64,000 bases of DNA from Deltaproteobacteria bacterium. GTDB lineage: Bacteria; Myxococcota_A; Polyangia; Polyangiales; Houyiibacteriaceae. The position numbers and the translations under genes are program-made. The notes under the pieces are model-generated. The model had not been told where the DNA came from. It searched no databases and saw nothing but the letters and a program-made list of their open reading frames with translations. The stretch lies in NCBI GenBank assembly GCA_034670305.1, contig JAXMNT010000026.1, positions 1 through 64,000 of the forward strand, given 5' to 3'. Of the stretch, positions 2,578-56,416 are shown in pieces. The number at the start of each line of letters is the position of its first letter. Position 1 is the first letter of the stretch.

Positions 2578-3321
2578 TCAACGCCCGAAGCGCGGCTCGG
2601 CGCCTTCGAGGCCGAAGCCGAGCAGTTGGAGCGTGTGCCCGCCGGCGCTGCCTTCGAACCGCACCATGCCGCTGATCGGAACCGCGGAATGAAGCCAGAC
2701 GTTGGCCGTGACCTGTTCCTGGCCGAACGTGAGCTCGCGCTCCGCCTTGAAGGCGCCGTGGAAGACGCCCGCCGGAACGGTGACGTCCTCGCGTTCTCCG
2801 ACGAGCTCCGCCGGGAAGAGCATGCCCAGCCACTGCTGCAGGAGCGGCTGGTACGTGGGCAGCAAGCGAGCGGGGATCTCTTCGATCTCCCCGCGGTTCT
2901 CGAAGCTGAGCTGGAGCACCCGGTGGGCGTCCGCCGTCGCGCCAGGACGCACGAGCATCTTCACCTGGCGGGTGCGTTCGCGCCGCACGTCGGTGACCTC
3001 GACCCAGAACGCTCCGTCCTCGCGGTCGACGATCCGGTACTCGACGGTGGAGCGGCCGCCTTCGCGCCAGTCGGCCCCGTAGCGGATCCACTGTCCGATC
3101 GCGGGTGCGATCGGCGCGACCCCTTCGGCGGGCGCGTCGTGTTCGGTCGGCTCCGCGACCTCCGCGGGCGGGTCGTCTTCTCGGGGTGCCGGGGGGCCGG
3201 CTTTCGTGGGCCGCTCGACCGAGTCGAGTGTCTCGACCGGTTCGGTCTCGGTCGCGCCGTTCGAACCGCAACCGACCGACAATCCAACCGAAGCAGCGAC
3301 CAGCGCGAGGAGCATCCGCAT
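2578..3321 (-). CDS. hypothetical lipoprotein
   Basis: start moved to MRMLLALVAASVGLSVGC (lipobox); Pro/Glu linker followed by a beta-rich domain (VTVPAGVF). Confidence 0.65.
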   Translation of the reverse strand: MRMLLALVAASVGLSVGCGSNGATETEPVETLDSVERPTKAGPPAPREDDPPAEVAEPTEHDAPAEGVAPIAPAIGQWIRYGADWREGGRSTVEYRIVDREDGAFWVEVTDVRRERTRQVKMLVRPGATADAHRVLQLSFENRGEIEEIPARLLPTYQPLLQQWLGMLFPAELVGEREDVTVPAGVFHGAFKAERELTFGQEQVTANVWLHSAVPISGMVRFEGSAGGHTLQLLGFGLEGAEPRFGR

Positions 3322-3440
3322 GGCCTCACCCTGACAGGAGTGATGCACCCGCGCCACGAAACGCCGGGATGGGCAGCCGCCGGTGCGCCTCACGCCGAGG
3401 GGTGGATCCCCTCGGGGCCGGGGCGTGCTACAAGCCGCGC

Positions 3441-3935
3441 ATGGCGAACATCACGTTTAAGGGCACCGAGATCCAGACCAGTGGCGCGCTCCCCGCGAAG
3501 GGGACCGCCGCACCCGCGTTCACGCTCGTGGACAAGGGGCTTGCGGAGAAGACGCTGGCGGACTTCGCGGGCAAGAAGAAGATCCTCACCATCAACCCGA
3601 GCTACGACACGGGCGTCTGCATGGCGACGGCACGCGCGTTCAACGCGAAGGCCGGTGAGACGGGCGCGGTCGTCTTGATGATCAGCGCCGACCTCCCCTT
3701 CGCGCAGAAGCGGTTCTGCGAAGCCGAGGGGCTCGAGCACGTCGTGCCGCTCTCGACCTTCCGCTCGACCTTCGTGAAAGACTACGGGCTGGAAATGCTC
3801 GGTGGCCCGCTCAAGGGTCTGAGCGCCCGCGCGGTGCTCGTACTCGACGAGAAGGACCAGGTCGTGCACGCGGAGCTCGTGCCCGAGATCGTGCAAGAGC
3901 CGGACTACGACGCCGTGCTCGCCGCCGCGAAGTAG
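3441..3935 (+). CDS. tpx: thiol peroxidase (atypical 2-Cys peroxiredoxin)
   Basis: MANITFKG start, PSYDTGVC, SADLPFAQKRFC, RAVLVLDE, EPDYDAVL. Confidence 0.93.
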   Translation: MANITFKGTEIQTSGALPAKGTAAPAFTLVDKGLAEKTLADFAGKKKILTINPSYDTGVCMATARAFNAKAGETGAVVLMISADLPFAQKRFCEAEGLEHVVPLSTFRSTFVKDYGLEMLGGPLKGLSARAVLVLDEKDQVVHAELVPEIVQEPDYDAVLAAAK

Positions 3936-3937
3936 CG

Positions 3938-4942
3938 TTGGCCGCCAAAGCGCTCGTTCGGGATCTGGCCGCGGGCGCACTGCAGCTCGTGGGCGGCAGC
4001 GCGCCAGGCCGACGTGCGGCCGGACGGCTGACCATCGCGACGTTTCACCGGGTGCTGCCAGAAGCCCTGCGCGCGCGTTATCCATTGCCTGGACTCTGCG
4101 TGACGCCCGAGGAGCTCGACTGGTTCCTGGGGTTCTTCCAGCAGCGGTTCGAGGTGATGCCGCTCGCAAAAGCGTGGCGGCTCTACCAAGCCGGGACGCC
4201 CACCGAGCGTCCACTCTTGGCGCTGACGTTCGACGACGGGGAGCGAGACAACGTCGAGTTCGCGTGGCCCGTGATGCGGCGCCACGGGGTGCGGGGGTCG
4301 TTCTATCTGGCGACCGACCACACGGGCAGTGGCGCACCGATCTGGCACGACCAGATCGGGTTCGCGCTCTTGCGTGCGATCGAACAGGGCAAAGCGCGCG
4401 AGGCAGGCGCCCTCCTCGGTCGGCAGCTCGACGCAAGCTCCGTCGCCGCGTGCATCGAAGCCACGAAGTCGCTCACGCCAACGGAACGCTCGGAACAGGT
4501 CGCGCGGCTGAGCGACCTGACCACGGGCGAAGTGCCGGGGTGGGCCGCGCTCATGACCTGGTCCGACGCGCGGGTGCTGCAGCGTGCGGGCAACGAGATC
4601 GGCTCGCACTCGCTCTCCCATCCGCTGCTGCCCCAGTGCGACGACGGTTGGCTCGAGCGAGAGCTCCAGGAGTCCAAGGCGCGCATCGAGTCCGAGCTCG
4701 GCGCGCCGGTCGAGACCTTCTGCTACCCGAACGGCGACGCGGACGAACGGGTCGCGCGGGCCGCCGAGCGGGCGGGGTACGCCTGCGCCGTCACCACCAC
4801 CTGGGGCATGAACGACGACTCGGTCGACCCGTTCCTGCTCCGGCGCTGCGACATCAACGCCGAACACGTGGTCGACCGGACGGGTCAGCTGTCGAGTGCG
4901 AGGTTGCAGCTGAGGTTGAGCGGGCTGCAGCCGGGACTCTGA
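3938..4942 (+). CDS. polysaccharide deacetylase (CE4/NodB family)
   Basis: TFHRV, LTFDDG, GSHSLSHP, FCYPNG; TTG start 2 nt after the tpx stop. Confidence 0.85.
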   Translation: MAAKALVRDLAAGALQLVGGSAPGRRAAGRLTIATFHRVLPEALRARYPLPGLCVTPEELDWFLGFFQQRFEVMPLAKAWRLYQAGTPTERPLLALTFDDGERDNVEFAWPVMRRHGVRGSFYLATDHTGSGAPIWHDQIGFALLRAIEQGKAREAGALLGRQLDASSVAACIEATKSLTPTERSEQVARLSDLTTGEVPGWAALMTWSDARVLQRAGNEIGSHSLSHPLLPQCDDGWLERELQESKARIESELGAPVETFCYPNGDADERVARAAERAGYACAVTTTWGMNDDSVDPFLLRRCDINAEHVVDRTGQLSSARLQLRLSGLQPGL

Positions 4943-4948
4943 GGGGTC

Positions 4949-5020
4949 GCCGAGGCCGAAGCCGACGCCTCCGAAGCCGACTCCGAAGCCGACGCCGACT
5001 CCGAAGCCGAAGCCGACTCC
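4949..5020. repeat. hexamer tandem array (GCCGAA/GCCGAC/TCCGAA)
   Basis: fills the gap between two convergent stop codons (4942 and 5027). Confidence 0.85.
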
Positions 5021-13610: not shown

Positions 13611-14888
13611 TCAAAAGGCCGGCAGCAGCACAGAGACACCAGTTCCCGCGGCGCCCGATTGCACCTCCACCACCCCCGCGTGCGCGCGTGCGGTGCCGAG
13701 CACGACGCTCAATCCCAGACCGCGATGGCCAGGTTTCGTCGAGTAGAACGGCTCGAACATCGACTCGACCGTCGCCGCGTCGAGTGGGCCGCCTGCGCCG
13801 CGCACTTCGATGCACAGGTGGGGCCCGGCGGCGGCGTCGGCCGCTCGGAAGAGGGCCGAGTCGAGGCGCTCGTCGTCCAGGGCCACCGTACGAAGCCGCA
13901 CTTCGACGTTGGGGCGTGCCTCTGCTCCGATGCCCGCGTCGGCGGCGTTGCCCACCAGGGCCGCGACCGCGCCGAAGATGAGTTCCGTCGCGACCTCCAT
14001 CGCGTCCGGCAAGGTGCCATCGGCTTCCACCGACAACTGGCAATCTTTGGCGCTTCCGTCGAGGTCGCGACGGAGCCGTTCGAGCAACGCGTGGCCATCG
14101 AGTTTCTCCCGGACCGCGGGCGTGCCTCCACTGAACGCGAGCAGCTTGCTGCACAGGGTCTCGGTTTGCGCGGCCGCGTGCGCGACGTCTTGGAGCCCCA
14201 CGCGCGTGGCGCCCACGTCCCCGCGTGCGGCCGCGTCACTCGCCTCTCCGACCGCGAACGTCAACACCTGGAGCGAGTTGGCGAAGTCGTGGGCGACGAG
14301 GCCGGCGAGGCGGCTCAGACTGCTCAGCCGCTCCAGCTGCGCGCGTCGTGCCTGCAGCTGCTCGAGCGCCCGCTGCTGCTGCGCCCGCTGCATCACGATC
14401 GACGCGATCGCCGCGCACCGCTCCATCGCGTCGAGGTGGGTGTCGCGGGGTTCGGCGACCGCCGATTCGTAGATGGCGAAGGTGCCCAGCACGGTGCCGT
14501 CGGGGTCGAAGATGGGCTGGGACCAACAGGCGCGAAGGTCGAACCGATCCGCCAGTTCCGTGAAGTCGCCCCACCGCGGATCGACTGAGATGTCTTTCGC
14601 GATCACCCGCTCCTTGAGGAACGCCGCGGTGCCGCAACTCCCTACGCGCGGACCGATCTCGACGCCTTCGATCGCCTCGCAGTACGCGGGATCGAGACCC
14701 GCCGAAGCCGCGTGGTACAGGTTCTCGCCCTCCAGGCGCAGCACGCTGGTGGCGGTCTCCGGCACCGCAGCACGAAGCACCTGGACCAGACGGCCGAGAC
14801 TCTGCGACTCGGTCTCGCCAAGGGCGACGCCTACGAGCACCGACAGAAGATCGTCGGCGAGGGGCGAAGGGGACACGCGGCGCATCAT
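13611..14888 (-). CDS. GAF-domain histidine kinase (divergent HATPase)
   Basis: GSCGTAAF...DPRW...ACWSQPI GAF; VAHDFAN; FEPFYSTK, GLGL; start ATG 14888 or GTG 14876. Confidence 0.8.
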   Translation of the reverse strand: MMRRVSPSPLADDLLSVLVGVALGETESQSLGRLVQVLRAAVPETATSVLRLEGENLYHAASAGLDPAYCEAIEGVEIGPRVGSCGTAAFLKERVIAKDISVDPRWGDFTELADRFDLRACWSQPIFDPDGTVLGTFAIYESAVAEPRDTHLDAMERCAAIASIVMQRAQQQRALEQLQARRAQLERLSSLSRLAGLVAHDFANSLQVLTFAVGEASDAAARGDVGATRVGLQDVAHAAAQTETLCSKLLAFSGGTPAVREKLDGHALLERLRRDLDGSAKDCQLSVEADGTLPDAMEVATELIFGAVAALVGNAADAGIGAEARPNVEVRLRTVALDDERLDSALFRAADAAAGPHLCIEVRGAGGPLDAATVESMFEPFYSTKPGHRGLGLSVVLGTARAHAGVVEVQSGAAGTGVSVLLPAF

Positions 14889-14922
14889 ACCTCGTTGCGA
14901 ACCGTCGATCGAACCTTCACGG

Positions 14923-15849
14923 TCAGACGGGCGGCATGAGCCGCGTCCAGGCGGTCTCGAGTCGGCGCACACGGGCGGATCCGGCCACTTGCAGCAGAGG
15001 CCGGTCGCGGAGAAACCGGGTCTTCGTGACCTCGTCCACGGTGGTCCAGTCGATCCGTTCGACCAGCGCATGGGTGCGGTCGAGCACCCCCGCGAGCGCA
15101 ACGTGCACCGCGGCGTCGAGCGGCTCGGCGAGCGCGAGCGGGTAGATCGCGGTGGCGATCATCGCGAGCTCGGTCATCTCCACCCGGGGCCATCCGTGCC
15201 GGCGCCCGAGCTGGATGAGGTAGCCGACGAGGGCCGCATGCACGTGAAGATCCTCCACGGTGCGGAACGGCTTGAGGTAGTCCTCGAACCCATCGCCCGG
15301 GAGGATCTCGTCGCGGTGCACGACGACGTCGTCGAGGGTCAACTTCGCGTGCGGGATCTCCGGTACGAACGGGGTGGGCGGCAACATCTCGAGCGAGAGC
15401 CCCTCGCGGGACCTCGGGAGCCGGACCATCTTCAGTCGGTTGCGATCGTGATCGTCGAGGCCCTCGCTCACGACGACGACGAGTTCCTCCGCGTGGGTGG
15501 CGAGGGTGACGAACCCCTTCTGCCCCGTGGCGCGGTAGTGGTCGCCGTCTTGGGTCAGCCGGGTGGTGATCGCGCGGGGGTGACTGCCCCCCTTCTCGGT
15601 CGCACACAGCGCGGTGATCACGCCAACGAGCGACGGCACGAGGCTGCCGAGCGCTTCGACGTAGCCGCTCGCGAAGGCGTACCCGACGCGGTCCATCGCG
15701 AAGCCCCCCGCGAACGCCCGCGCCGCCGGCGTGACGAACTCGGGTGTGCGCTGTTTCGCCGCCCACCACGCGTCGACGCTCTCGATGGAGGTCTCCGGAA
15801 GGGGATCCCCCAACATGTGACGCAGCACGTCGACCATCTCGGACGCCAT
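14923..15849 (-). CDS. acyl-CoA dehydrogenase family protein
   Basis: ALCATEKGG, ATGQKGFVT, PEIPHA, GDGFEDYLKPFRTVED; start MASEMV. Confidence 0.75.
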   Translation of the reverse strand: MASEMVDVLRHMLGDPLPETSIESVDAWWAAKQRTPEFVTPAARAFAGGFAMDRVGYAFASGYVEALGSLVPSLVGVITALCATEKGGSHPRAITTRLTQDGDHYRATGQKGFVTLATHAEELVVVVSEGLDDHDRNRLKMVRLPRSREGLSLEMLPPTPFVPEIPHAKLTLDDVVVHRDEILPGDGFEDYLKPFRTVEDLHVHAALVGYLIQLGRRHGWPRVEMTELAMIATAIYPLALAEPLDAAVHVALAGVLDRTHALVERIDWTTVDEVTKTRFLRDRPLLQVAGSARVRRLETAWTRLMPPV

Positions 15850-20674: not shown

Positions 20675-20703
20675 GTCGGCTTCGGCTTTGGCTTGGCTTC
20701 GGC
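20675..20703. repeat. short degenerate (TTCGGC)n array
   Basis: gtcggc ttcggc tttggc ttggc ttcggc directly after the stop at 20673. Confidence 0.55.
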
Positions 20704-24038: not shown

Positions 24039-24113
24039 CTGCTTTCAGCGGGTTCGATCGCTTTGACGCGCGCCGCTTCAGCCGTGAGACTGCGCGCGAG
24101 AGTGGGGGTGTGT

Positions 24114-27100
24114 ATGTCGCGCGGGTGGGCGGGGTCCTTGGTTTTGGTAGGGTTGGTCGGGCTGTTGGCCTGCGGAGACGACGACACGATGTCGCCGGTG
24201 GACGGTGGCGGCGACGCCGCGGCGTGCACGGACGACTCGTGTGACGACGGCCTGTTCTGCAACGGACCCGAATCGTGCGTCTCCGGAACCTGTGCGGCCG
24301 GCAGTCCTCCCTGCGGCGCGGGCATGACCTGCGACGACATCAGCGACTCGTGCAGCGGCACGTGCGACGTCCCCGACGCCGATGGCGACGGCGCGGACTC
24401 GATCGCATGCGGCGGGGACGACTGCGACGACGACGACCCGGACCGGTTCCCGGGCAACGAAGAAGTCTGCGACGCCGAAGGCCACGACGAAGACTGCGAC
24501 GGCGCCACCCTTGGCGGACGCGACGTCGACCGCGATGGGTTCGTCTCGGACGTCTGCTGCAACGACGACGTGTGCGGGCTCGACTGCGCGGACGGCATCG
24601 GCGCGGTCCACCCGGACGCCGCCGAGGTCTGCAACCTGCGCGACGACGACTGCGACGGCGCCGTCGACGAAGGCACCCAGGTCGAAGCGCACGCCGACGC
24701 GGACCGCGATCTCTATGGCGCCGACGAGGTGCTGATGGTCTGTGCGGGCACCGCCGGCACCTCCGGTGTGCCGAACGACTGCGACGACTCGGACCCGGAC
24801 CGCAACCGGGCGGTACCCGAGATCTGCGACGGAGAGGACAACGACTGCGACGACATCGTCGACGAAGACGCGGTCGACCACCCGTGGTACCCCGACACGG
24901 ACGGCGACGGATACGGCGATGCCGACGGCGACATCGTGCTTCAGTGCGGCCGCCCGGACGGATACAGCCTGCGCGCCTCCGATTGCGACGACAGCGACGC
25001 CGCGCGCTCGCCCGGCGCCGACGAACTCTGCAACGCGCTCGACGACGACTGCGATGGCATCCCAGGCTTCGAGATCGCTCCTGGCGACACCGAAGACGAC
25101 GACCGCGACGGGTTCGCGGACGCAACGTGCGGCAGCACCGACTGCGACGATCTGGACCCCTACGTGTACGTCGGCGCACCCGAGCTCGCCGACGACGTCG
25201 ACAACGACTGCGACGGAACGATCGACGAAGACGTGACCGAGGTGGACTGGTACAGCGACGCGGACGAAGACGGCGGTGGCGACGCGACGGACACCCCAGT
25301 GACCTCCAGCGAGCGCCAAGCCGGACGTGTCATCGGCGGCGGCGACTGCGACGACGCGGACGCCACGGTCACGACCACCGCGCGCGAGGTCTGCGACGGG
25401 ATCGACAACGACTGCGACGACACCATCGACGAAGGCACCCGGCGGAGTGCCTGGTACCGCGACGAAGACGGCGACGGCTTCGGCGATCCGACCATGGTCA
25501 CGCTCGACTGCGCCCAGCCGGATGGCTACGCAGCCAGCCCGTCGGACTGCGACGACGGCGACGCGATGCGGTTCCCCGGTGCGACCGAGCTCTGCGACGA
25601 CGTCGACCAGGATTGCGACGCGCGGGTGGACGAAGGCGCGGTGCCGGTCGACTGGTACGTCGACTTCGACGGGGACGGCTACGGCACCGGCGCGGTCGCG
25701 ATGTCGAGCTGCGTGATGCCGGTGGGACACGCGCTGCGCGACGGGGATTGCGCGGACATGAACGCGTCGATCAACCCGGGCGCCACCGAGATCTGCGATG
25801 GCGTGAACGACGAGGACTGCGACGAGAACGTCGACGAAGGCCTCACGTCGATCTTCTACCGCGACATGGACGGAGACGGCGCCGGCGACCCGAGCATGAC
25901 CATGACCGCGTGTTCCGCGCCGAGTGGGTTCGTCTCGACGATGAACGACTGCGACGACGACGACGGCGCGAACTTCCCAGGCAACCCGGAAGTCTGCGAC
26001 ATGGCCAACAACGACTGCGACGGCGCGACCGATGAAGGCCTGCCGACCGCCATCTACTACCGCGACATGGACGGCGACGGCTACGCGCCGACCGGTGCCG
26101 GATCGCTCATTCGATGCGCGGCGCCCGACGGCTACACCGCCGACCTCGGCGACTGCGACGATGGCCTCCCCTCGGTGAACCCCGACGGCACCGAGGTATG
26201 CAACGGGCTCGACGACGACTGCAGCACCGTCGTCGACGACGGGGTCGCCGCGATGTGTTCGCCCGCCATTCACCCCGACCTGACCGGGGCCTGCGAGATG
26301 CCGCCGGCAGCCGCAGGCACTTGCGACTGTGTGAGCGCGACCGCCGACGAGTGCGACGGCAACCCGGTCAACGGATGCGAAGATCTGATGACCGACGTCG
26401 ACCACTGCGGGGCGTGCAACGACCCATGCCCGGACGCTCGGTACTGCGCTGCGGGCAGCTGCACCTACGCGCCCATCACTGCCTTGACCGGCGGCGTCTC
26501 GAACAGCTGTGTCATCCGCGGTACCAACGTCGTGCAGTGCTGGGGCACCAACCGCACCACCTTCCAGGGCCCGGGTTCCTTTGGCACCGCGACGCGGGTA
26601 CTGGAGGGGTTCGAAGTCGTGCACTTTGCGACGAGTCGCTACAGCAGCGAGGGGCTCGGGCACGGCTGCTTCGCAGCGCTCAACGGGACCGGCGGGAACG
26701 ACCTCTACTGCTGGGGCTACGACAGCGAAGGGCAGACCGGCGACGGCGCTGTGACGCCCGCCCGCAACGAGGTTCCGACCCGAATCCTGGCCTCGGTCGA
26801 CGATGTGGTCGAAGACTGGGCGGAGGTCGTGCTCAGCGGTGCCTACTCCGTCGCGCGGACCGCAAGTGGTTCCGTTTGGGCATTCGGCACCAACTCGTCG
26901 GGCCAGTTGGGCAGCGACACCGGAGGCGCGGCGTCTCCAGTGCCCTTGCAGGTCGCCGGAATCGACGACGCGGTGCAGATCTCCGCGGGGTTCTCCCATG
27001 CCTGCGCCGTGCGGGCCTCGGGTCAGGTCTGGTGCTGGGGCAGTGACTCGTTCAACCGATGCGGCAACGGCGTGGTGCGGCGAGATGGGCCAACACCGCG

Positions 27101-27623
27101 ACCGGTGGTGTTCGACATGGGTGGGGAGATGCCACTGCAGAACGTCGCTCAGGTGGCGGCGCACGACGACGGTGGTTGCGCCCGCAAGACCGACGGAACC
27201 GTCTGGTGCTGGGGCGCCGGCACCCTTGGCAACGGGAGCACCGGGACCACCGGTGTCGCCGTCCAGGTGACGATCTCGGGCGCCACCGACCTGACATGCA
27301 GCGGACGGCCCAGTTGCTGCGCCGTCACGGGTGGCGGCATCGTTCAGTGCTGGGGCAACTTCAACGGCGGCACCCACGGCAACAACGCGACCACCGCGAA
27401 CCCGACGCCGGTCAACGTCGTGCTCGGAGCCGGACCCACACCACTCACTGGCGTCACCGAGGTGCACGCGACCAACGATGTGATGTGCGGACTCGTGCCT
27501 GCGCCGATGAACGACCGCGTCGTGTGCTGGGGCAACGGGACCAACGGACGGCTGGGCGACGGCAACACCGGCACCCACACGCGGCTCAATGCGGGTGCGC
27601 CGGACTTCGTGATGGGCCTATGA
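24114..27623 (+). CDS. large lipoprotein: about 10 MopE-type putative metal-binding repeats plus RCC1-like propeller
   Basis: LLAC lipobox; DxDGDG...DCDD...ExCDGxDNDCDG repeats; HCGAC motif; CWG/GQLG/HAC RCC1 repeats. Confidence 0.85.
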   Translation: MSRGWAGSLVLVGLVGLLACGDDDTMSPVDGGGDAAACTDDSCDDGLFCNGPESCVSGTCAAGSPPCGAGMTCDDISDSCSGTCDVPDADGDGADSIACGGDDCDDDDPDRFPGNEEVCDAEGHDEDCDGATLGGRDVDRDGFVSDVCCNDDVCGLDCADGIGAVHPDAAEVCNLRDDDCDGAVDEGTQVEAHADADRDLYGADEVLMVCAGTAGTSGVPNDCDDSDPDRNRAVPEICDGEDNDCDDIVDEDAVDHPWYPDTDGDGYGDADGDIVLQCGRPDGYSLRASDCDDSDAARSPGADELCNALDDDCDGIPGFEIAPGDTEDDDRDGFADATCGSTDCDDLDPYVYVGAPELADDVDNDCDGTIDEDVTEVDWYSDADEDGGGDATDTPVTSSERQAGRVIGGGDCDDADATVTTTAREVCDGIDNDCDDTIDEGTRRSAWYRDEDGDGFGDPTMVTLDCAQPDGYAASPSDCDDGDAMRFPGATELCDDVDQDCDARVDEGAVPVDWYVDFDGDGYGTGAVAMSSCVMPVGHALRDGDCADMNASINPGATEICDGVNDEDCDENVDEGLTSIFYRDMDGDGAGDPSMTMTACSAPSGFVSTMNDCDDDDGANFPGNPEVCDMANNDCDGATDEGLPTAIYYRDMDGDGYAPTGAGSLIRCAAPDGYTADLGDCDDGLPSVNPDGTEVCNGLDDDCSTVVDDGVAAMCSPAIHPDLTGACEMPPAAAGTCDCVSATADECDGNPVNGCEDLMTDVDHCGACNDPCPDARYCAAGSCTYAPITALTGGVSNSCVIRGTNVVQCWGTNRTTFQGPGSFGTATRVLEGFEVVHFATSRYSSEGLGHGCFAALNGTGGNDLYCWGYDSEGQTGDGAVTPARNEVPTRILASVDDVVEDWAEVVLSGAYSVARTASGSVWAFGTNSSGQLGSDTGGAASPVPLQVAGIDDAVQISAGFSHACAVRASGQVWCWGSDSFNRCGNGVVRRDGPTPRPVVFDMGGEMPLQNVAQVAAHDDGGCARKTDGTVWCWGAGTLGNGSTGTTGVAVQVTISGATDLTCSGRPSCCAVTGGGIVQCWGNFNGGTHGNNATTANPTPVNVVLGAGPTPLTGVTEVHATNDVMCGLVPAPMNDRVVCWGNGTNGRLGDGNTGTHTRLNAGAPDFVMGL

Positions 27624-27630
27624 CGCCGTA

Positions 27631-27925
27631 GCGGAAGCGGAAGCCGAAGCGGTCGCGGAAGCGGAAGCGGAAGCGGAAGCCGAAGCGGAAGCGGTCGCGG
27701 AAGCGGTCGCGGAAGCGGAAGCGGAAGCGGAATCCGAATCCGAATCCGAAGCCGAATCCGAATCCGAATCCGAAGCCGAATCCGAAGCAGAAGCCGAAGC
27801 CGAAACCGAAGCCGAAGCCGAAGCCGAATCCGAATCCGAATCCGACGCAGAAGCCGAAGCCGAAGCCGAAGCCGACGCCGAAGCCGACGCCGACGCCGAC
27901 GCCGAATCCGAGGCCGAAGCCGGCC
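27631..27925. repeat. composite hexamer array: (GCGGAA)n then (TCCGAA/GCCGAA/GCCGAC)n
   Basis: about 295 bp of 6-nt units read directly; starts 7 nt after the stop at 27623. Confidence 0.95.
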
Positions 27926-31521: not shown

Positions 31522-31857
31522 TCAGCGGCGGCGGCGACCGAAGAGAGCGACCAGACCGAACATCCACGCGGCGCCCGCGCCCTCGCCCGCTGCTGAACAG
31601 CCGCCGGAGGGGGCAGGGGCTGGCGGTGCTTCGCCTTCGACGCAGTGACCTCCTTGTCCGCGTTCGTACGGCTCCCAATGGGTCCCCTCGCCGCACGCCA
31701 CACATTCACCGTCGTGGGCGCCCTGCCACTCTTCGCCTTCGGGACATGGGAACGGAGGCACGACGTCGGCCGAAGCCCAGGCCGGCGCGAGACACACGGC
31801 GACCATCCCTGCGATCAGGACGAGTCGAGCGAAGACGGATGGCGCGGAACGGTTCAT
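31522..31857 (-). CDS. small secreted Cys-rich protein with MYXO-CTERM tail
   Basis: signal ending AWASA-DVVPP; two C-x-EG-x-x-W-x(5-8)-C units; GGCSAAG..AAW..LVALFGRRRR. Confidence 0.75.
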   Translation of the reverse strand: MNRSAPSVFARLVLIAGMVAVCLAPAWASADVVPPFPCPEGEEWQGAHDGECVACGEGTHWEPYERGQGGHCVEGEAPPAPAPSGGCSAAGEGAGAAWMFGLVALFGRRRR

Positions 31858-31894
31858 GGAATCGGAGTGTACCAGCGAGACGTTGGTGCCCGGC

Positions 31895-32731
31895 ATGACC
31901 GCGCTTCGAGAGCACGCGACTCAGCGCCGCGCCGACCTCCGCTTGGCAGCGGGACTGCTCGCCCTCATTGTGGGGACCGTGTTCGGACTCGTGACGTTGC
32001 AGCGCGCGCTGCTCTTTCCGCGCCCTCGCGTGGCCGTTGCCGCGCCGCCACCGAACACCGAGGACTTCGAAGCGTGGTGGATCGAATCCCCGGAGGGACC
32101 GGTCGAAGCGTGGTTCTTGCGCGGCCGGAACGTCACCGGCCCAAGCCCCGTCGTCCTGTTCACCCACGGCAACGGAGAGCTCATCGACTTCTGGCGGGAC
32201 GAGATGAACCCGTGGCTCGACATGGGCGTCAGCGTCGTGCTCGCGGAGTACCGCGGCTACGGACGCAGCGCCGGCAGCCCGAGCGAAGCCCACATCGCAG
32301 CGGATCTTCGGCTGCTGCACGCGAAGATGGTCGCCCACCCCCTCATCGACCCGGCGCGCATCGTCTACCACGGGCGTTCGCTTGGCGGCGGCGCCGTCGG
32401 CACGCTCCTGCGTTCCCACGCGCCGCGCGCGTTGATTCTCGAGTCCACCTTCACCAGCGTCACCGATCTGGTGGCGGCGATGCGGCTTCCGCGATCGCTG
32501 ATGGTCGACCGCTTCGAGACCCTGCCCGCCCTCGCGGAGTACAACGGCCCGCTGCTCGTCGTGCACGGCGAACACGACCGCGTGATCCCCGTCGCGCATG
32601 GACGACGCCTCGCGCAAGCCAGGCCCGGATCCGAACTCCTGCTCTACGACTGCGGCCACAACGACCTCCCCCACGACGCCCGCTACTGGCAAACGATGCG
32701 CACGTTCCTCGAACGCGCGAACGTGCTGTAG
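31895..32731 (+). CDS. membrane-anchored alpha/beta hydrolase (ABHD12/13/17-like)
   Basis: N-terminal TM, HGNGE, EYRGYGRS, GRSLGG, HGEHDRVIP, GHND. Confidence 0.85.
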   Translation: MTALREHATQRRADLRLAAGLLALIVGTVFGLVTLQRALLFPRPRVAVAAPPPNTEDFEAWWIESPEGPVEAWFLRGRNVTGPSPVVLFTHGNGELIDFWRDEMNPWLDMGVSVVLAEYRGYGRSAGSPSEAHIAADLRLLHAKMVAHPLIDPARIVYHGRSLGGGAVGTLLRSHAPRALILESTFTSVTDLVAAMRLPRSLMVDRFETLPALAEYNGPLLVVHGEHDRVIPVAHGRRLAQARPGSELLLYDCGHNDLPHDARYWQTMRTFLERANVL

Positions 32732-32763
32732 CAACGCCGCCAGCTTCGGCTCCATCACACGAA

Positions 32764-32790
32764 AGCGGAGCGCCCAACGGACGCTCCGCT
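32764..32790. terminator. hairpin between convergent genes
   Basis: agcggagcg (32764-72) / cgctccgct (32782-90) inverted repeat; no clear U-tract. Confidence 0.5.
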
Positions 32791-32803
32791 CAGCTTCGCC
32801 AAG

Positions 32804-33115
32804 CTATCCGCGACTAAGCTTGAACAACATCGCGCAGACGTGGTCCGCCAGGTCGTAGACCTCGTCGCTCGCCTCCACGTACCCCATCACGCCTGCGACC
32901 TGCAGAGCCGCCTTCACTTCGCGGGCCTCGCCAAGAGCTCGAGAAAAGCCGTCCGGGTTCCGCCCCCCGCGCGCGCTCCGCGACTCGGCGATCAAGAGCG
33001 GGACCGCCTGCGCGGCGCGCCGGAGTTGCGACTTGAGACTCGCCTCGCGAATGCGAGGCAGAACCTCGCGAACCAGCGTAGAAAGCAGAAGCAGCGACTT
33101 GTCGAATACCAGCAT
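32804..33115 (-). CDS. four-helix-bundle protein (23S rRNA IVS protein / bAvd-like family)
   Basis: QLRRAAQAVPLLIAE, FSRALGEAREV..AL, GY, ML.KL; SD GGGAGG 5 nt before ATG. Confidence 0.8.
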   Translation of the reverse strand: MLVFDKSLLLLSTLVREVLPRIREASLKSQLRRAAQAVPLLIAESRSARGGRNPDGFSRALGEAREVKAALQVAGVMGYVEASDEVYDLADHVCAMLFKLSRG

Positions 33116-33176
33116 GTTGACCTCCCGGTCGTTGTGCGCCGAGCGTGAACTCGCCCGAGGGCGCGCAGCGCCCCCC

Positions 33177-33270
33177 AGCGGTCTGGGCGGTGCCGGGTCA
33201 AGGACGAGCGAAGCGAAGCCAGCGAAGCTGGGGCCGAAGGCCTCCTTTACGCGGTGCCGCCCAGACCGCT
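33177..33270. other. long imperfect hairpin upstream of the four-helix-bundle gene
   Basis: perfect 14-bp IR agcggtctgggcgg (33177-90) / ccgcccagaccgct (33257-70), extendable inward; inner aagga/tcctt pair; three GCGAAGC in the loop. Confidence 0.7.
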
Positions 33271-33339
33271 ACGGTCGGACAACCCACGGGCCAGCCAAAC
33301 CCTCCCGAGAAGGGGGCGGAAGCTACGGGGTGCGTCGCT

Positions 33340-33425
33340 GTCGGCATCGGCATCGGCCGGCATCGGCTTCGGTATCGGCTTCGGCTTCGGCGTCGGCTTC
33401 GCCGTCGGCGTCGGCGTCGGCTCGG
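33340..33425. repeat. (ATCGGC/TTCGGC/GTCGGC)n hexamer array
   Basis: read directly; lies in the divergent gap between 33115(-) and 33477(+). Confidence 0.85.
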
Positions 33426-33476
33426 GAAGTCTGCTCGAGCACGCAACCGGCGGCCCACGGTTTCGAGGAGGGACCC

Positions 33477-34139
33477 ATGCACTCCCTCTCCCCCTGGGCG
33501 ACCTCGGTCGCCTGTCTTCTTCTCTGGGTGGCCTCCGCGTGTCCTTCGCCGGCCGCCGCTCAGTCCCGCTGGAACACGCCGGTGCTCGAAGGGCACATCG
33601 AGGAGCACGCGCCCCGGCGCGACGAACTCGGCTACTTCCGCGTCCCGCGCCTCGAGATCGCCGCCGACGGGGGCGGGTCGCTCGGCGACGCCGCGCTCGA
33701 CCGGTTCCACGCGGTCGGCACACTCCGCCTGCACGTGCCGCTCGGCGCCGCGGTCGTCGTGGGCGGGGAGGCGCGAAGCGGCGTGCTGTTCTTCCCACGC
33801 GACCTGTCGGACTTGAACGACGAACTCGAGTTCACCCGCCGCACCGACGTGGCGTTCTTCGCTCGGCTCCGCGCCACGTTCGCACGCACGACGATCTTCG
33901 TCGGCGGCGACTTCGGCTGGTCGCGCGTGGCTCCGGAGGATCAGTCTGCCGGGAGTGCGCGCGATGGTCTCGTCGCCGGACCTCAGGTGGGTGTGGAGGT
34001 CGGCACCTTCGTTCGGACTTCTCTGACGGCCAGCTGGCGCGTCTATCGATACGGCGAAGCCGACCTCGACGGCAGCCGCGGGCACTCGGAGTTCTCGTTC
34101 GGCCTGGGGTTGCAGATCCCGATCTGGAGGGTCCGATGA
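33477..34139 (+). CDS. secreted protein, probable small outer-membrane beta-barrel
   Basis: SD GAGGAGG; signal ending AAA-Q; alternating amphipathic strands, terminal [10 protein letters not shown]. Confidence 0.6.
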
Positions 34140-35086: not shown

Positions 35087-35638
35087 ATGCAGAAGTGGAT
35101 CGGGATCGGGTTGGCGTTGGCGATGACGATGGGGCTCGGCGCAGGCGCCGATGCCCAACGCGGACAGCGCGGGCAGCGCGGACAACGCGGATACGTGCAA
35201 CAGGGCGCTCACGGCCACGGGCACGCCCATCGCCGGCGCGGACGCGGACACCGACCGCGAGGGCACCACCGAGCGGCGCCCAACTGCCGCGCGACCCTCG
35301 TCCAGGTCGGCCACCACCCCGTCAACGCAGGCTACTGCGAGCGAGCCGAACCCTACTGCGCCGACGCGCTGCTCCGCGCCGGCCACCACCCCGTCAACCT
35401 CGGCTACTGCGCCAACGTCGAACCCGTCTGCGCGTCGTCTCTCCTGCAGGCCGGCCACCACCCCGTGAACCTTGGCTACTGCAGCAGCACCCGCGCCGAA
35501 CCCTACTGCGCCCAGGCCCTCCTCCAAGCCGGCCACCACCCCGTCAACCTCGGCTACTGCGCCAACGTGGAACCCAACTGCGCCGTCTCCGTCCTCCAAA
35601 GCGGCCGCCACCCCGTCAACCTCGGCTACTGCCGCTGA
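35087..35638 (+). CDS. secreted His/Cys repeat protein (5x C-x7[10 protein letters not shown])
   Basis: signal peptide ending ADA-Q, QRG/His/Arg-rich linker, five repeats of about 24 aa; GC3-rich codons. Confidence 0.8.
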
Positions 35639-35641
35639 CAC

Positions 35642-35873
35642 CACCGGCACCGGCACCGGCACCGGCACCGACGGCCTCGGCCTCGGCATCGGCATCGGCA
35701 TCGGCTTCGGCATCGGCTTCGCCATCGGCATCGGCATCGGCTTCGGCATCGGCTTCGGCATCGGAGTCGGCTTCGGCATCGGCTTCGGCATCGGCATCGG
35801 CATCGGCATCGGCTTCGGCATCGGCATCGGCTTCGGAGTCGGCCTCGGCTTCGGCTTCGGAGTCGGCCTCGGC
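35642..35873. repeat. composite hexamer array: (ACCGGC)n then (NTCGGC)n
   Basis: read directly; begins just after the stop at 35638. Confidence 0.93.
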
Positions 35874-39259: not shown

Positions 39260-40222
39260 TCAGCAGCAGCCGTCGCCGGGGTAGTGCCAGGTCGACGCGG
39301 TGACGTGGACGTCGGGCATCGGGGTCAGGGCCGCGGCGGTCTTGTCGCAGATGCCGAGCGGCACGTCGCGCAAGAGGAAGTGGCCCTTGCCGTCGTCGAA
39401 GTGCGGCGCCGCGCCGGTGTAGATCGCGACCCGGCCGGTGAAGATGCAGGCTCCGTCGTCCGGGATCGGATCGGCGAACGCGGCCACCTCCACGCTCTCG
39501 AGCCAGAGGTCTTCGTCGAGGCCGTGGCGCGCTTTGTCGAGCATGCGGTAAGGGCGCTTGGATCGCACTTCGACCGTCCCGAAACCAGCGTCGACGATGC
39601 GCGCGAGGTAGTCCTCGAGCGGGAGCGCGCCCGAGAGGCACCACGCACGCAGCTTCGGATCGGACGCGAGGTGCGCGGGCATGGGGCGCGTCGAGACCGG
39701 GTCGCTGAGCACGAGCGCGCCGTGCGGACGCAAGACACGCCGGGTCTCCGAGAGCGCCCTCTGGAGGTCGTCTGGTTCGAAGATGTTGAAGAGGCAGTTC
39801 TGCGCGACCAGATCGACCGACGCGTCGTCGAGCGGCAGCGCCAGCGCGTCGCCTTCACGAAGGTCGACGAACGAAGGGTCGAACCAGTCGTTCACCTTGG
39901 CCGCTTCTTCCAGAAGGGCGCGGGCCACATCGAGCATGGCGACGTTCGTGTCGAGGGCGATCACCGCGCCCGGCCGGCGCAAGAACCAGGCGAGCTGCAG
40001 CGCTTCCATGCCCGCGCCGACCCCGATGTACGCAACCTGGTTCACCCGATCGAGATCGCGCGGGTTCACCGTGCTGCCGCACCCGTAGTTCCGCTCGAGC
40101 ATGGCGTGCGGGACGACGAGCCCCGGCAACTTCCAGACGGGCGACTGAGTACAACACAAGGCCGCGTTGGGCGTCGCCGCCGCATCCGCATACACCTCTT
40201 CGACGACGTCACGATAGTCCAC
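39260..40222 (-). CDS. arsM: arsenite S-adenosylmethionine methyltransferase (cyanobacterial/Bacteroidetes ArsM type)
   Basis: ALCC, NYGCG, YIGVGAGMEALQ, AQNCLFNIF, CLSGA, DGACIFTG, CDKTA, C-terminal CC. Confidence 0.85.
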   Translation of the reverse strand: MDYRDVVEEVYADAAATPNAALCCTQSPVWKLPGLVVPHAMLERNYGCGSTVNPRDLDRVNQVAYIGVGAGMEALQLAWFLRRPGAVIALDTNVAMLDVARALLEEAAKVNDWFDPSFVDLREGDALALPLDDASVDLVAQNCLFNIFEPDDLQRALSETRRVLRPHGALVLSDPVSTRPMPAHLASDPKLRAWCLSGALPLEDYLARIVDAGFGTVEVRSKRPYRMLDKARHGLDEDLWLESVEVAAFADPIPDDGACIFTGRVAIYTGAAPHFDDGKGHFLLRDVPLGICDKTAAALTPMPDVHVTASTWHYPGDGCC

Positions 40223-40263
40223 ACCCCACCCTACGCCCCCCACCCGTCGGCGTTAGCCGACAG

Positions 40264-40657
40264 GGTGCCCGTGCCCGTGCCCGTGCCCTTGCCCTTGCCC
40301 TCGAGTGAAGCCTTCGGCGTCGGCATCGGCTTCGGCATCGGCTTCGGCGTCGCCTTCGGCGTCGGCTTCGGCGTCGCCTTCGGCATCGGCATCGGCTTCG
40401 GCATCGGCGTCGGCTTCGGCGTCGGCATCGGCTTCGGCTTCGGCGTCGGCTTCGGCGTCGGCATCGGCTTCGGCGTCGGCATCGGCGTCGGCTTCGGCGT
40501 CGGCTTCGGCGTCGGCTTCGGCTTCGGCGTCGGCTTCGGCGTCGGCATCGGCGTCGGCTTCCGCTCCGTCCGCTTCCGCCTCCGCCACCGCGTCCGCCAC
40601 CGCCACCGCGTCCACTTCCGCGTCGCTCCCGCTCCCCGCGTCCGCTTCCGCTTCCGA
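40264..40657. repeat. tripartite hexamer array: (GTGCCC/TTGCCC)n, (NTCGGC)n, (NTCCGC)n
   Basis: about 390 bp read directly; abuts the stop of the minus-strand gene at 40658. Confidence 0.95.
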
Positions 40658-56054: not shown

Positions 56055-56416
56055 CGCCGAAGCCGAAGCACGTCGCCGAGGCCGAAGCCGAGGCCGAAGC
56101 CGAAGCCGAATCCGAGGCCGAAGCCGAGGCCGAAGCCGAAGCCGAAGCCGAAGCCGAAGCCGAATCCGAAGCCGAGGCCGACGCCGAATCCGAGGCCGAA
56201 TCCGACGCCGGACAGCCGAAGCCGAGGCCGAAGCCGAGGCCGACGCCGAAGCCGACCCCGAATCCGAAGCCGAGGCCGAAGCCGAGGCCGACGCCGAAGC
56301 TGACCCCGAATCCGAGGCCGAAGCCGAATCCGAGGCCGAAGCCGAAGCCGAATCCGAAGCCGACGCCGAAGCCGAATCCGAGGCCGACGCCGTTTCCGCT
56401 TCTGCTTCTGCTTCTG
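56055..56416. repeat. composite hexamer array (GCCGAA/GCCGAG/TCCGAN)n ending in (CTTCTG)n
   Basis: about 360 bp read directly; downstream of the flotillin gene. Confidence 0.95.

Follow-up and report, generated by a model that had tools for sequence, protein, structure and literature searches.

The 64-kb stretch of DNA analysed here (contig JAXMNT010000026.1, positions 1 to 64,000; 'the window' throughout) carries a small stand-alone gene of the PF05635/TIGR02436 family, whose genes and proteins we label four-helix-bundle (FHB), lying between two hairpins and close to an array of hexanucleotide repeats. Our reading, which we hold tentatively and with somewhat less than even confidence, is that this locus is a copy of a conserved, self-contained cassette of the Myxococcota, whose FHB protein binds stem-loops of its own leader and which sits in a hexamer microsatellite. 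Such a cassette would run, in order, from a hexanucleotide array through a structured leader hairpin, a Shine–Dalgarno (SD) sequence and a small, basic, Avd-like FHB gene to a terminator-like hairpin.

The cassette in related genomes

Related loci were found by scanning with a 10-sequence alignment and were chosen by the protein motif ALG[SE]A[RA]E[VA][KRQ]A alone, so that no flank was favoured in the sampling; a scan of genome contigs with the single window protein had returned 354 pattern matches and no close relative. The 26 loci come from 17 genomes, all of them Myxococcota or Myxococcota-like metagenome-assembled genomes (MAGs), spanning Sorangium, Polyangia and Anaeromyxobacteraceae. The three-part layout recurs in 15 of these 17 genomes, the remaining two being not assessable on the leader side. 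Counting by gene, we see a leader hairpin in front of 36 of 41 FHB genes (29 matches to a covariance model, six of a distinct Anaeromyxobacteraceae type, and the window's own); the five genes that lack it comprise two cut by contig ends, two with a deletion and one that begins 21 nt after the upstream gene. Perfect stems of at least 12 bp are accordingly dense in the leaders, with 17 in 10.0 kb as against 33 in 258 kb elsewhere (~13-fold), several of the latter being hairpins just past an FHB stop; in eight related loci such stems immediately follow the FHB stop or separate two convergent FHB genes. At the borders of the cassettes, a period-6 array is found within 450 nt at 34 of 48 testable sides, compared with 5.3% of 18,676 background windows, an enrichment near family members that the first-pass annotation of this locus had anticipated.

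The surroundings are otherwise unremarkable for any common theme: the 30 open reading frames (ORFs) that flank the related cassettes have unrelated functions (transporters, a DNA ligase, a sigma factor, dehydrogenases and others) and include no common partner gene. The sole reverse transcriptase (RT) among them is that of a group II intron in locus L016, and a group II intron was also all that Rfam found in 12 related loci. This intron (2703-4630(-); RF02001 and RF00029, with an RVT_1 ORF) lies inside an FHB leader hairpin, its insertion point falling just after the hairpin's 5' arm when judged against the paralogous locus L018.

Several MAGs hold two to four copies of the cassette at 80–90% nucleotide identity. 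The similarity between these paralogs spans the leader as well as the gene and, where arrays flank the unit, starts or stops within them. In four Sorangium genomes the cassette is syntenic. Two convergent FHB genes are present at 14 of the 26 loci (L002-L005, L008, L010, L011, L013-L016, L018, L019 and L026); the window has one. The partners are 35–59% identical and belong to two ancient paralog types that are paired together across families: Sorangium and a Polyangiaceae MAG have the same pairing, and so, among themselves, do the Anaeromyxobacteraceae. That two paralog types should be kept as a convergent pair hints at a hetero-oligomer.

Leader hairpins and the FHB protein

RNAalifold, applied to 23 leaders, returns a 14-pair helix with compensatory changes in 11 pairs. 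A covariance model built from 23 leaders (R1; a second model, R2, was built from nine short leaders with a second helix) gives 29 matches at E ≤ 0.1 in 204 kb of loci, and each of the 29 is immediately upstream of an FHB gene. In the R1 alignment 92.3% of cells are paired, compared with 65.0% in shuffles (0/500 reach the observed value) and 36–52% when partners are slid; these figures lean high, the alignment being model-fitted and the sequences related, but the slid control bears them out, as RNAalifold does independently. Double changes are seen at 12 of the 14 helix pairs. The main type of leader hairpin is maintained by compensatory base changes. It has a variable stem ending in CAAGGC...GCCUUG that encloses mini-hairpins with GC-UUC-GC apices, together with internal 9-mer repeats in some genomes; its 3' end lies 57–75 nt before the ATG and it spans 95–121 nt. 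The six Anaeromyxobacteraceae genes have another type, 115–132 nt long with 15–24-bp perfect stems, which extends into the SD region. Runs of 9-mers (GCCGTSCTC, then GGCTCCGGG/CGCTGCGCG types) sit inside the leader hairpins of L010, L011, L014, L015, L005, L016 and L018, and in some loci have short words in common with the neighbouring hexamer arrays.

Turning to the window itself, the elements described in the first-pass annotation are all in place (Table 1): the gene with its own SD, the downstream hairpin, a leader hairpin of about 94 nt with a 14-bp perfect stem and three copies of GCGAAGC, and the NTCGGC array.

Table 1. Features of the FHB locus and its immediate neighbours, in window coordinates
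Feature	Position	Strand	Description
Alpha/beta hydrolase gene	31856..32731	(+)	Left neighbour, convergent with the FHB gene
Downstream hairpin	32764..32790		GC-rich; 13-pair stem, 3-nt loop; between the convergent hydrolase and FHB stops
FHB gene	32804..33115	(-)	ORF of 103 aa; Avd/IVS-protein-like four-helix-bundle protein (IVS, intervening sequence)
Shine–Dalgarno GGGAGG	33121..33126	(-)	5 nt 5' of the FHB ATG; read from the sequence
Leader segment	33133..33176	(-)	Between hairpin and SD; two small predicted stem-loops in the 205-nt leader fold
Leader hairpin	33177..33270	(-)	94 nt; 14–15-bp outer stem (14-bp perfect); inner AAGGA/UCCUU arm
NTCGGC array	33341..33425		Tandem Repeats Finder (TRF); period 6, ~14.7 copies, one 7-nt unit
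Signal-peptide ORF, no Pfam match	33477..34139	(+)	Right neighbour, divergent from the FHB gene

The leader hairpin encloses two mini-hairpins, with apices GCC-UUC-GGC and AGC-UUC-GCU, and ends 61 nt before the ATG. On the gene's strand a 98-nt segment folds at -56.4 kcal/mol (z -5.30; 0/200 shuffles as good). Perfect stems of this kind are scarce: the 64-kb window has four of at least 12 bp (span up to 170) and two of at least 14 bp, the other of these two being at 13984-14074 (91-nt span), inside a GAF/histidine-kinase ORF (13611..15101(-)). The heptamer GCGAAGC occurs 60 times in the window, where 27 copies are expected, and only at the leader hairpin do three copies (33208, 33213 and 33222(+)) fall within 21 nt; neither the hairpin arms nor the leader is repeated elsewhere in the window. 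The segment that follows the hairpin starts ...GCUGCGCGCC, which by eye is similar to the CUGCGCGCG found after the hairpin in relatives. The downstream hairpin (79-nt fold of -37.1 kcal/mol, z -2.39, 2/200 shuffles as good) looks like a bidirectional terminator, though it has no long U run; a terminator scan left it unflagged because its T-run criterion was not satisfied.

Set beside the R1-type leader hairpins of Sorangium and Polyangia, the window's has the same position of its 3' end and a similar span, as well as an AAGG/CCUU inner arm, UUC-apex mini-hairpins and an CUGCGCGC-like tract after the stem; it differs in having no GUGCUCG tract before the stem, no internal 9-mer repeats and a longer outer stem. 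The locus as a whole has a hairpin within 260 nt before the start, a period-6 array within 450 nt, a hairpin past the stop and unrelated neighbours. By architecture it is a divergent member of the cassette class.

The 103-aa protein scores above the cut-offs of both families that the first-pass annotation had named: PF05635 at 42.6 bits (E 7.7e-11; gathering score 33.8) and TIGR02436 at 42.4 bits (E 6.8e-11; cut-off 24). Its AlphaFold2 model, made with an alignment of 40 relatives, has a pLDDT of 94.6 and four helices (residues 2-21, 25-46, 54-76 and 84-102), fitting the up-and-down bundle of ~100–120 aa expected of the family. In Foldseek the model matches the stand-alone family members 2gsc (Xcc0516; TM-score 0.84) and 2rld (BT_0352; TM 0.88), whose solved structures have five chains each, and also Avd (4dwl, TM 0.71; 8ub7, TM 0.73); a profile of the 40 FHB relatives matches 2gsc at E 1.3e-16. 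The protein is basic (isoelectric point, pI, 9.4), as is the family (pI 7.7–11.3 across 26 FHB proteins). Its start Met is kept in the close homologues P0001 and P0002 (proteins 93–95% identical), and the codon-position G+C content of the gene (0.72/0.44/0.80), similar to that of the adjoining genes, has the pattern of a native gene. A word-indexed protein collection holds five proteins near-identical to the window FHB and no others, an exhaustive protein search returns 313 representatives at E ≤ 0.001, and the nearest representative beyond its own cluster is 53% identical; with so few near-identical proteins and the next-nearest at this distance, the window FHB belongs to a small divergent clade. 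In the tree it sits on a long branch, joined weakly (86/66) to the Anaeromyxobacteraceae clade.

The FHB gene is oriented opposite to both of its neighbours, with a divergent spacer of 361 nt. A sigma-70 scan of 32600-33600 finds no promoter, and inspection by eye of the conserved block 5' of the hairpin for sigma-54 or extracytoplasmic-function (ECF) boxes finds nothing consistent. The statement of the first-pass annotation that the window holds no rRNA or RT gene stands fully for rRNA and, for RT, within the partial check made: Rfam finds neither rRNA nor any other family in the 64 kb (Rfam 15 at gathering or E-value thresholds gives nothing, and four weak matches are at chance level), no RT domain is present in the 30 window ORFs scanned with Pfam, a scan that was not exhaustive, and tblastn with a group II intron RT, again a partial check, gives no match better than E 0.16. 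There are no cas genes among the Pfam-scanned window ORFs or the ORFs flanking related cassettes. PADLOC and PHROGs give no match, on which ground a link to defence or phage was rejected, and a plasmid comparison likewise gave no match. Elsewhere in the window, ARAGORN calls a 91-nt tRNA-Arg(CCG) at 24728-24818(+), inside a 1186-aa MopE/RCC1-repeat ORF (24063..27623); Rfam sees no tRNA there and the call is probably a false positive.

Hexamer arrays and the weighing of readings

The NTCGGC array is upstream of both genes, at 226 nt from the FHB start and 52 nt from the ATG of the divergent gene. It is not special to this locus, which corrects the picture given by the first-pass annotation: the same hexamer words make up five further long arrays (4949-5020, 27625-27922, 35645-35873, 40314-40561 and 56056-56392) and a short sixth (20676-20703) across the window, with up to ~56 copies of a common unit NTCGGM in either orientation; several begin 2–7 nt after a stop codon. 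At about one per 10 kb this density is unusually high for a bacterial chromosome, and long intergenic hexamer arrays with genome-specific units are a notable feature of these genomes. A coding role was rejected, three of the six long arrays, the one at 33341-33425 included, shifting register by a non-multiple of three; a phased print of that array has a +1 shift, which rules it out as a reading frame. Two further blocks may be recorded here. A 183-aa ORF with no Pfam match (35087-35638(+)) contains 72/150-nt repeats (35295-35632) that encode a repeated protein motif, and an array of ~39 hexamers lies directly 3' of it; at 40265-40656, upstream of a methyltransferase gene (39260..40243(-)), a composite block consists of (GTGCCC)6, then ~41 NTCGGC units, then TCCGCC-type repeats.

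Among the relatives, leader-side arrays end 111–292 nt from the FHB start, a range into which the window's array falls, and the unit varies by genome (TTCGGA, GTGTCC, ACGCGC, GCGGAC, ATTCCC, CCGGAA and others). At two-sided loci the left and right arrays have words in common in direct orientation in 9 of 13 cases, and this direct orientation persists although the unit in between is often an inverted gene pair; the window copy has an array on its leader side only. A strand-specific role of the array in transcripts is therefore unlikely: arrays around a convergent pair mostly keep one genomic orientation and are thus read in opposite senses by its two genes, which speaks against the array acting in cis as strand-specific RNA. 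We also looked at the array as a copy of a template within the hairpin: there are partial likenesses by eye (GCGGAG/GCGGAC in Sorangium; CUUCGC/CUUCGG in the window), their orientation is inconsistent, and the idea was dropped.

How might such a unit work? The FHB protein, probably oligomeric like its solved relatives, would bind the stem-loops of its own leader, giving an autoregulatory or ribonucleoprotein (RNP) complex after the manner of the Avd pentamer on the tetraloop-capped stem-loop in the spacer RNA of diversity-generating retroelements (DGRs). The arrays would take no strand-specific part in the transcript; instead, the cassette would sit in a genome-wide, lineage-specific hexamer microsatellite, whose same-unit arrays on both sides of it and elsewhere could serve as portable homology for duplication or movement by ordinary recombination. 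Recombination between same-unit arrays could release a circle that then re-enters the genome at a different array, a model that would explain both the direct arrays on either side and the paralog similarity that stops inside arrays.

Several results weigh against this reading. The loci cannot be counted as independent: four are Sorangium orthologues, several others are paralogs from a single MAG, and the effective sample is nearer 10–15 than 26. R1 scores the window hairpin (33184-33268(-)) at 10.5 bits with an E of 5.7, rank 45 of 64, and R2 gives only a partial match (10.2 bits, 33162-33207); because neither model recognises it, what ties it to the relatives' hairpins is position, size and short motifs, and it is not placed in the R1 RNA family. 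The shared upstream hairpin for which the first-pass annotation had proposed a covariation check is in this sense real for the relatives, and the window's is not detectably homologous to theirs. The mini-hairpin apices are GC-UUC-GC rather than canonical C(UNCG)G tetraloops. Evidence that the hairpin acts as RNA is itself divided: in 27 of 35 hairpins the better fold is that of the gene's strand, which favours RNA on that strand, but the window is an exception (-65.0 kcal/mol for the opposite strand vs -56.4), and in helix P1 of the relatives, read on the gene's strand, A-C/C-A cells (11) outnumber G-U cells (7), counts that give no preference for that strand and are neutral between an RNA and a DNA-level role of the hairpin. 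In the protein, R33 and E44 of the motif GxxRxxxSxxxNxxE (PMC3936711) are present; where relatives carry S and N, the window protein has A37 and L41, as do P0001 and P0002. The gene is single-copy within the window (tblastn); the recurrence among relatives, in unrelated flanks and in multiple copies per MAG, fits the dispersed module envisaged in the first-pass annotation. No FHB gene or leader-like hairpin lies beside the other five long arrays or the short one, and no empty site, circle or excision product is seen in the loci examined, movement through arrays being a model.

An element with no host function at all, small, purely selfish and mobile or formerly so, that lands in arrays or spreads between them and uses its hairpins as DNA-level cis sites, we think unlikely, while recognising that much of the same evidence suits it: the unrelated genomic contexts, the paralogous copies within a MAG with their similarity bounded by flanking arrays, the direct arrays around an inverted gene pair, base-pair counts without a sign of strand-specific RNA, and the group II intron lodged in one leader hairpin. 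It fits less well with the lack of a recombinase or transposase in the unit, with synteny in four Sorangium genomes, and with a window gene that is single-copy, unmatched on plasmids and native in its codon-position G+C; and selection on function is argued by the two ancient paralog types, 35–59% identical, that stay paired across families. Slightly less probable still is that the target of the FHB protein is the hexamer repeat itself, in DNA or in RNA form, in the way that small centromere-binding or nucleoid proteins autoregulate through iterated sites next to their genes, acting in trans on cassette-free arrays, with the hairpin a mere 5' stabiliser or processing site. A basic protein, arrays 111–292 nt upstream of most FHB starts and a single unit common to the six long window arrays (the arrays within a related locus tend likewise) would all suit this, as would the FHB genes that a passage of PMC3936711 reports in CRISPR-cas loci, beside other repeat arrays. 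Yet hexamer units differ widely among genomes, with little change in the conserved face of the protein; array orientation relative to the gene goes either way; and an array is missing altogether at some FHB genes (L009) or present only downstream (L020).

Coincidence, in which an ordinary small gene with a terminator would happen to lie near an unrelated hairpin and one of many microsatellites, is disfavoured and in our view improbable. On the window data alone the adjacency of the array could be chance, since ~7% of 450-nt stretches touch an array (arithmetic from the coordinates), and a hairpin that R1 and R2 do not recognise, together with the single gene copy, points the same way; what speaks against it is the layout repeated in 15 of 17 related genomes, arrays at 34 of 48 sides vs 5.3%, and the ~13-fold enrichment of long stems. 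A similarly long shot is a more novel reading in which an RNP of FHB and leader hairpin would make or extend the lineage-specific arrays, or home into them; it could do so by bringing in a polymerase or RT whose gene lies elsewhere, to add repeats from a template, or by guiding recombination at arrays. Were this true, cassette-free arrays would be its products or landing sites, and the cassette an RT-less relative of the Avd–RNA machinery acting on simple repeats genome-wide. Finally, the order of repeats, hairpin and small gene recalls ToxIN-type loci, and one might imagine a type III toxin–antitoxin-like arrangement in which repeat RNA and hairpin neutralise the protein encoded downstream. 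In a type III locus, ~35-nt repeats on the gene's strand are followed by a terminator and a ToxN-like endoribonuclease; here, by contrast, the unit is 6 nt, copy number reaches 70, arrays of either orientation are found on both sides, an Avd-like bundle takes the place of a ToxN-type nuclease and PADLOC has no match, all of which makes this idea barely credible.

Relation to known systems

To our knowledge, PF05635 is a widespread family whose sole worked-out role is that of Avd as partner of DGR RTs, the role of its stand-alone and IVS members being an old question. The recurrent Myxococcota cassette, with its covarying leader hairpin and hexamer arrays, offers a defined and testable setting for that stand-alone function; because culturable Sorangium and Anaeromyxobacter carry it, direct measurements of binding, autoregulation, processing and array dynamics are within reach. 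Four things are new: a cassette that stands alone, a leader element that covaries and is missing from Rfam 15, a link between the cassette and hexanucleotide arrays, and the conserved convergent paralog pair; already known are the protein family and, from DGRs, a precedent for the link to a cis stem-loop. Our literature search, which covered papers rather than their supplements, found nothing on this cassette, on Myxococcota hexamer arrays or on their association, and the hexanucleotide passages of PMC12699852 make no mention of Myxococcota.

The closest comparison by sequence and fold is with the 23S rRNA IVS and stand-alone PF05635 proteins (Xcc0516, 2GSC; BT_0352, 2RLD), which belong to the same HMM family and have TM-scores of 0.84–0.88 to the window FHB, the latter differing in its missing motif S and N. 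In rRNA intervening sequences the gene is likewise tied to a long stem-loop. Unlike the ORFs of these rRNA elements, the window's gene has no rRNA gene in the window, and the cassette hairpin precedes the ORF rather than enclosing it.

Members of the family also lie beside short direct-repeat arrays in CRISPR-cas loci: a passage of PMC3936711 counts 18 23S_rRNA_IVP genes in cas loci, and a figure legend in PMC10910872 names the 23S_rRNA_IVP family among CRISPR-linked proteins. The window arrays differ: they contain no spacers, their period is 6 nt and no cas genes accompany them. The placing of FHB genes next to CRISPR arrays may reflect a related tendency.

With Avd of the DGRs (Bordetella phage BPP-1; 4DWL, 8UB7) the differences are plain: sequence identity is ~10%, no RT, template repeat or variable repeat lies near the cassette (on a partial check of the window), the cassette hairpin is upstream of the gene and 94–140 nt long compared with ~30 nt, and hexamer arrays are no feature of DGRs. 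The likenesses are of fold (TM 0.71–0.73; part of PMC10053308 describes PF05635 as Avd-like, from 2GSC vs 4DWL), of size and charge, both being small basic proteins, and of arrangement, Avd too being encoded beside a cis stem-loop RNA, one that it binds: in the portions of bioRxiv 10.1101/2023.10.23.563531 that concern it, the Avd pentamer contacts an 11-bp UNCG-capped stem-loop of the DGR RNA, and such stem-loops are present in 207 of 278 Avd-bearing DGRs.

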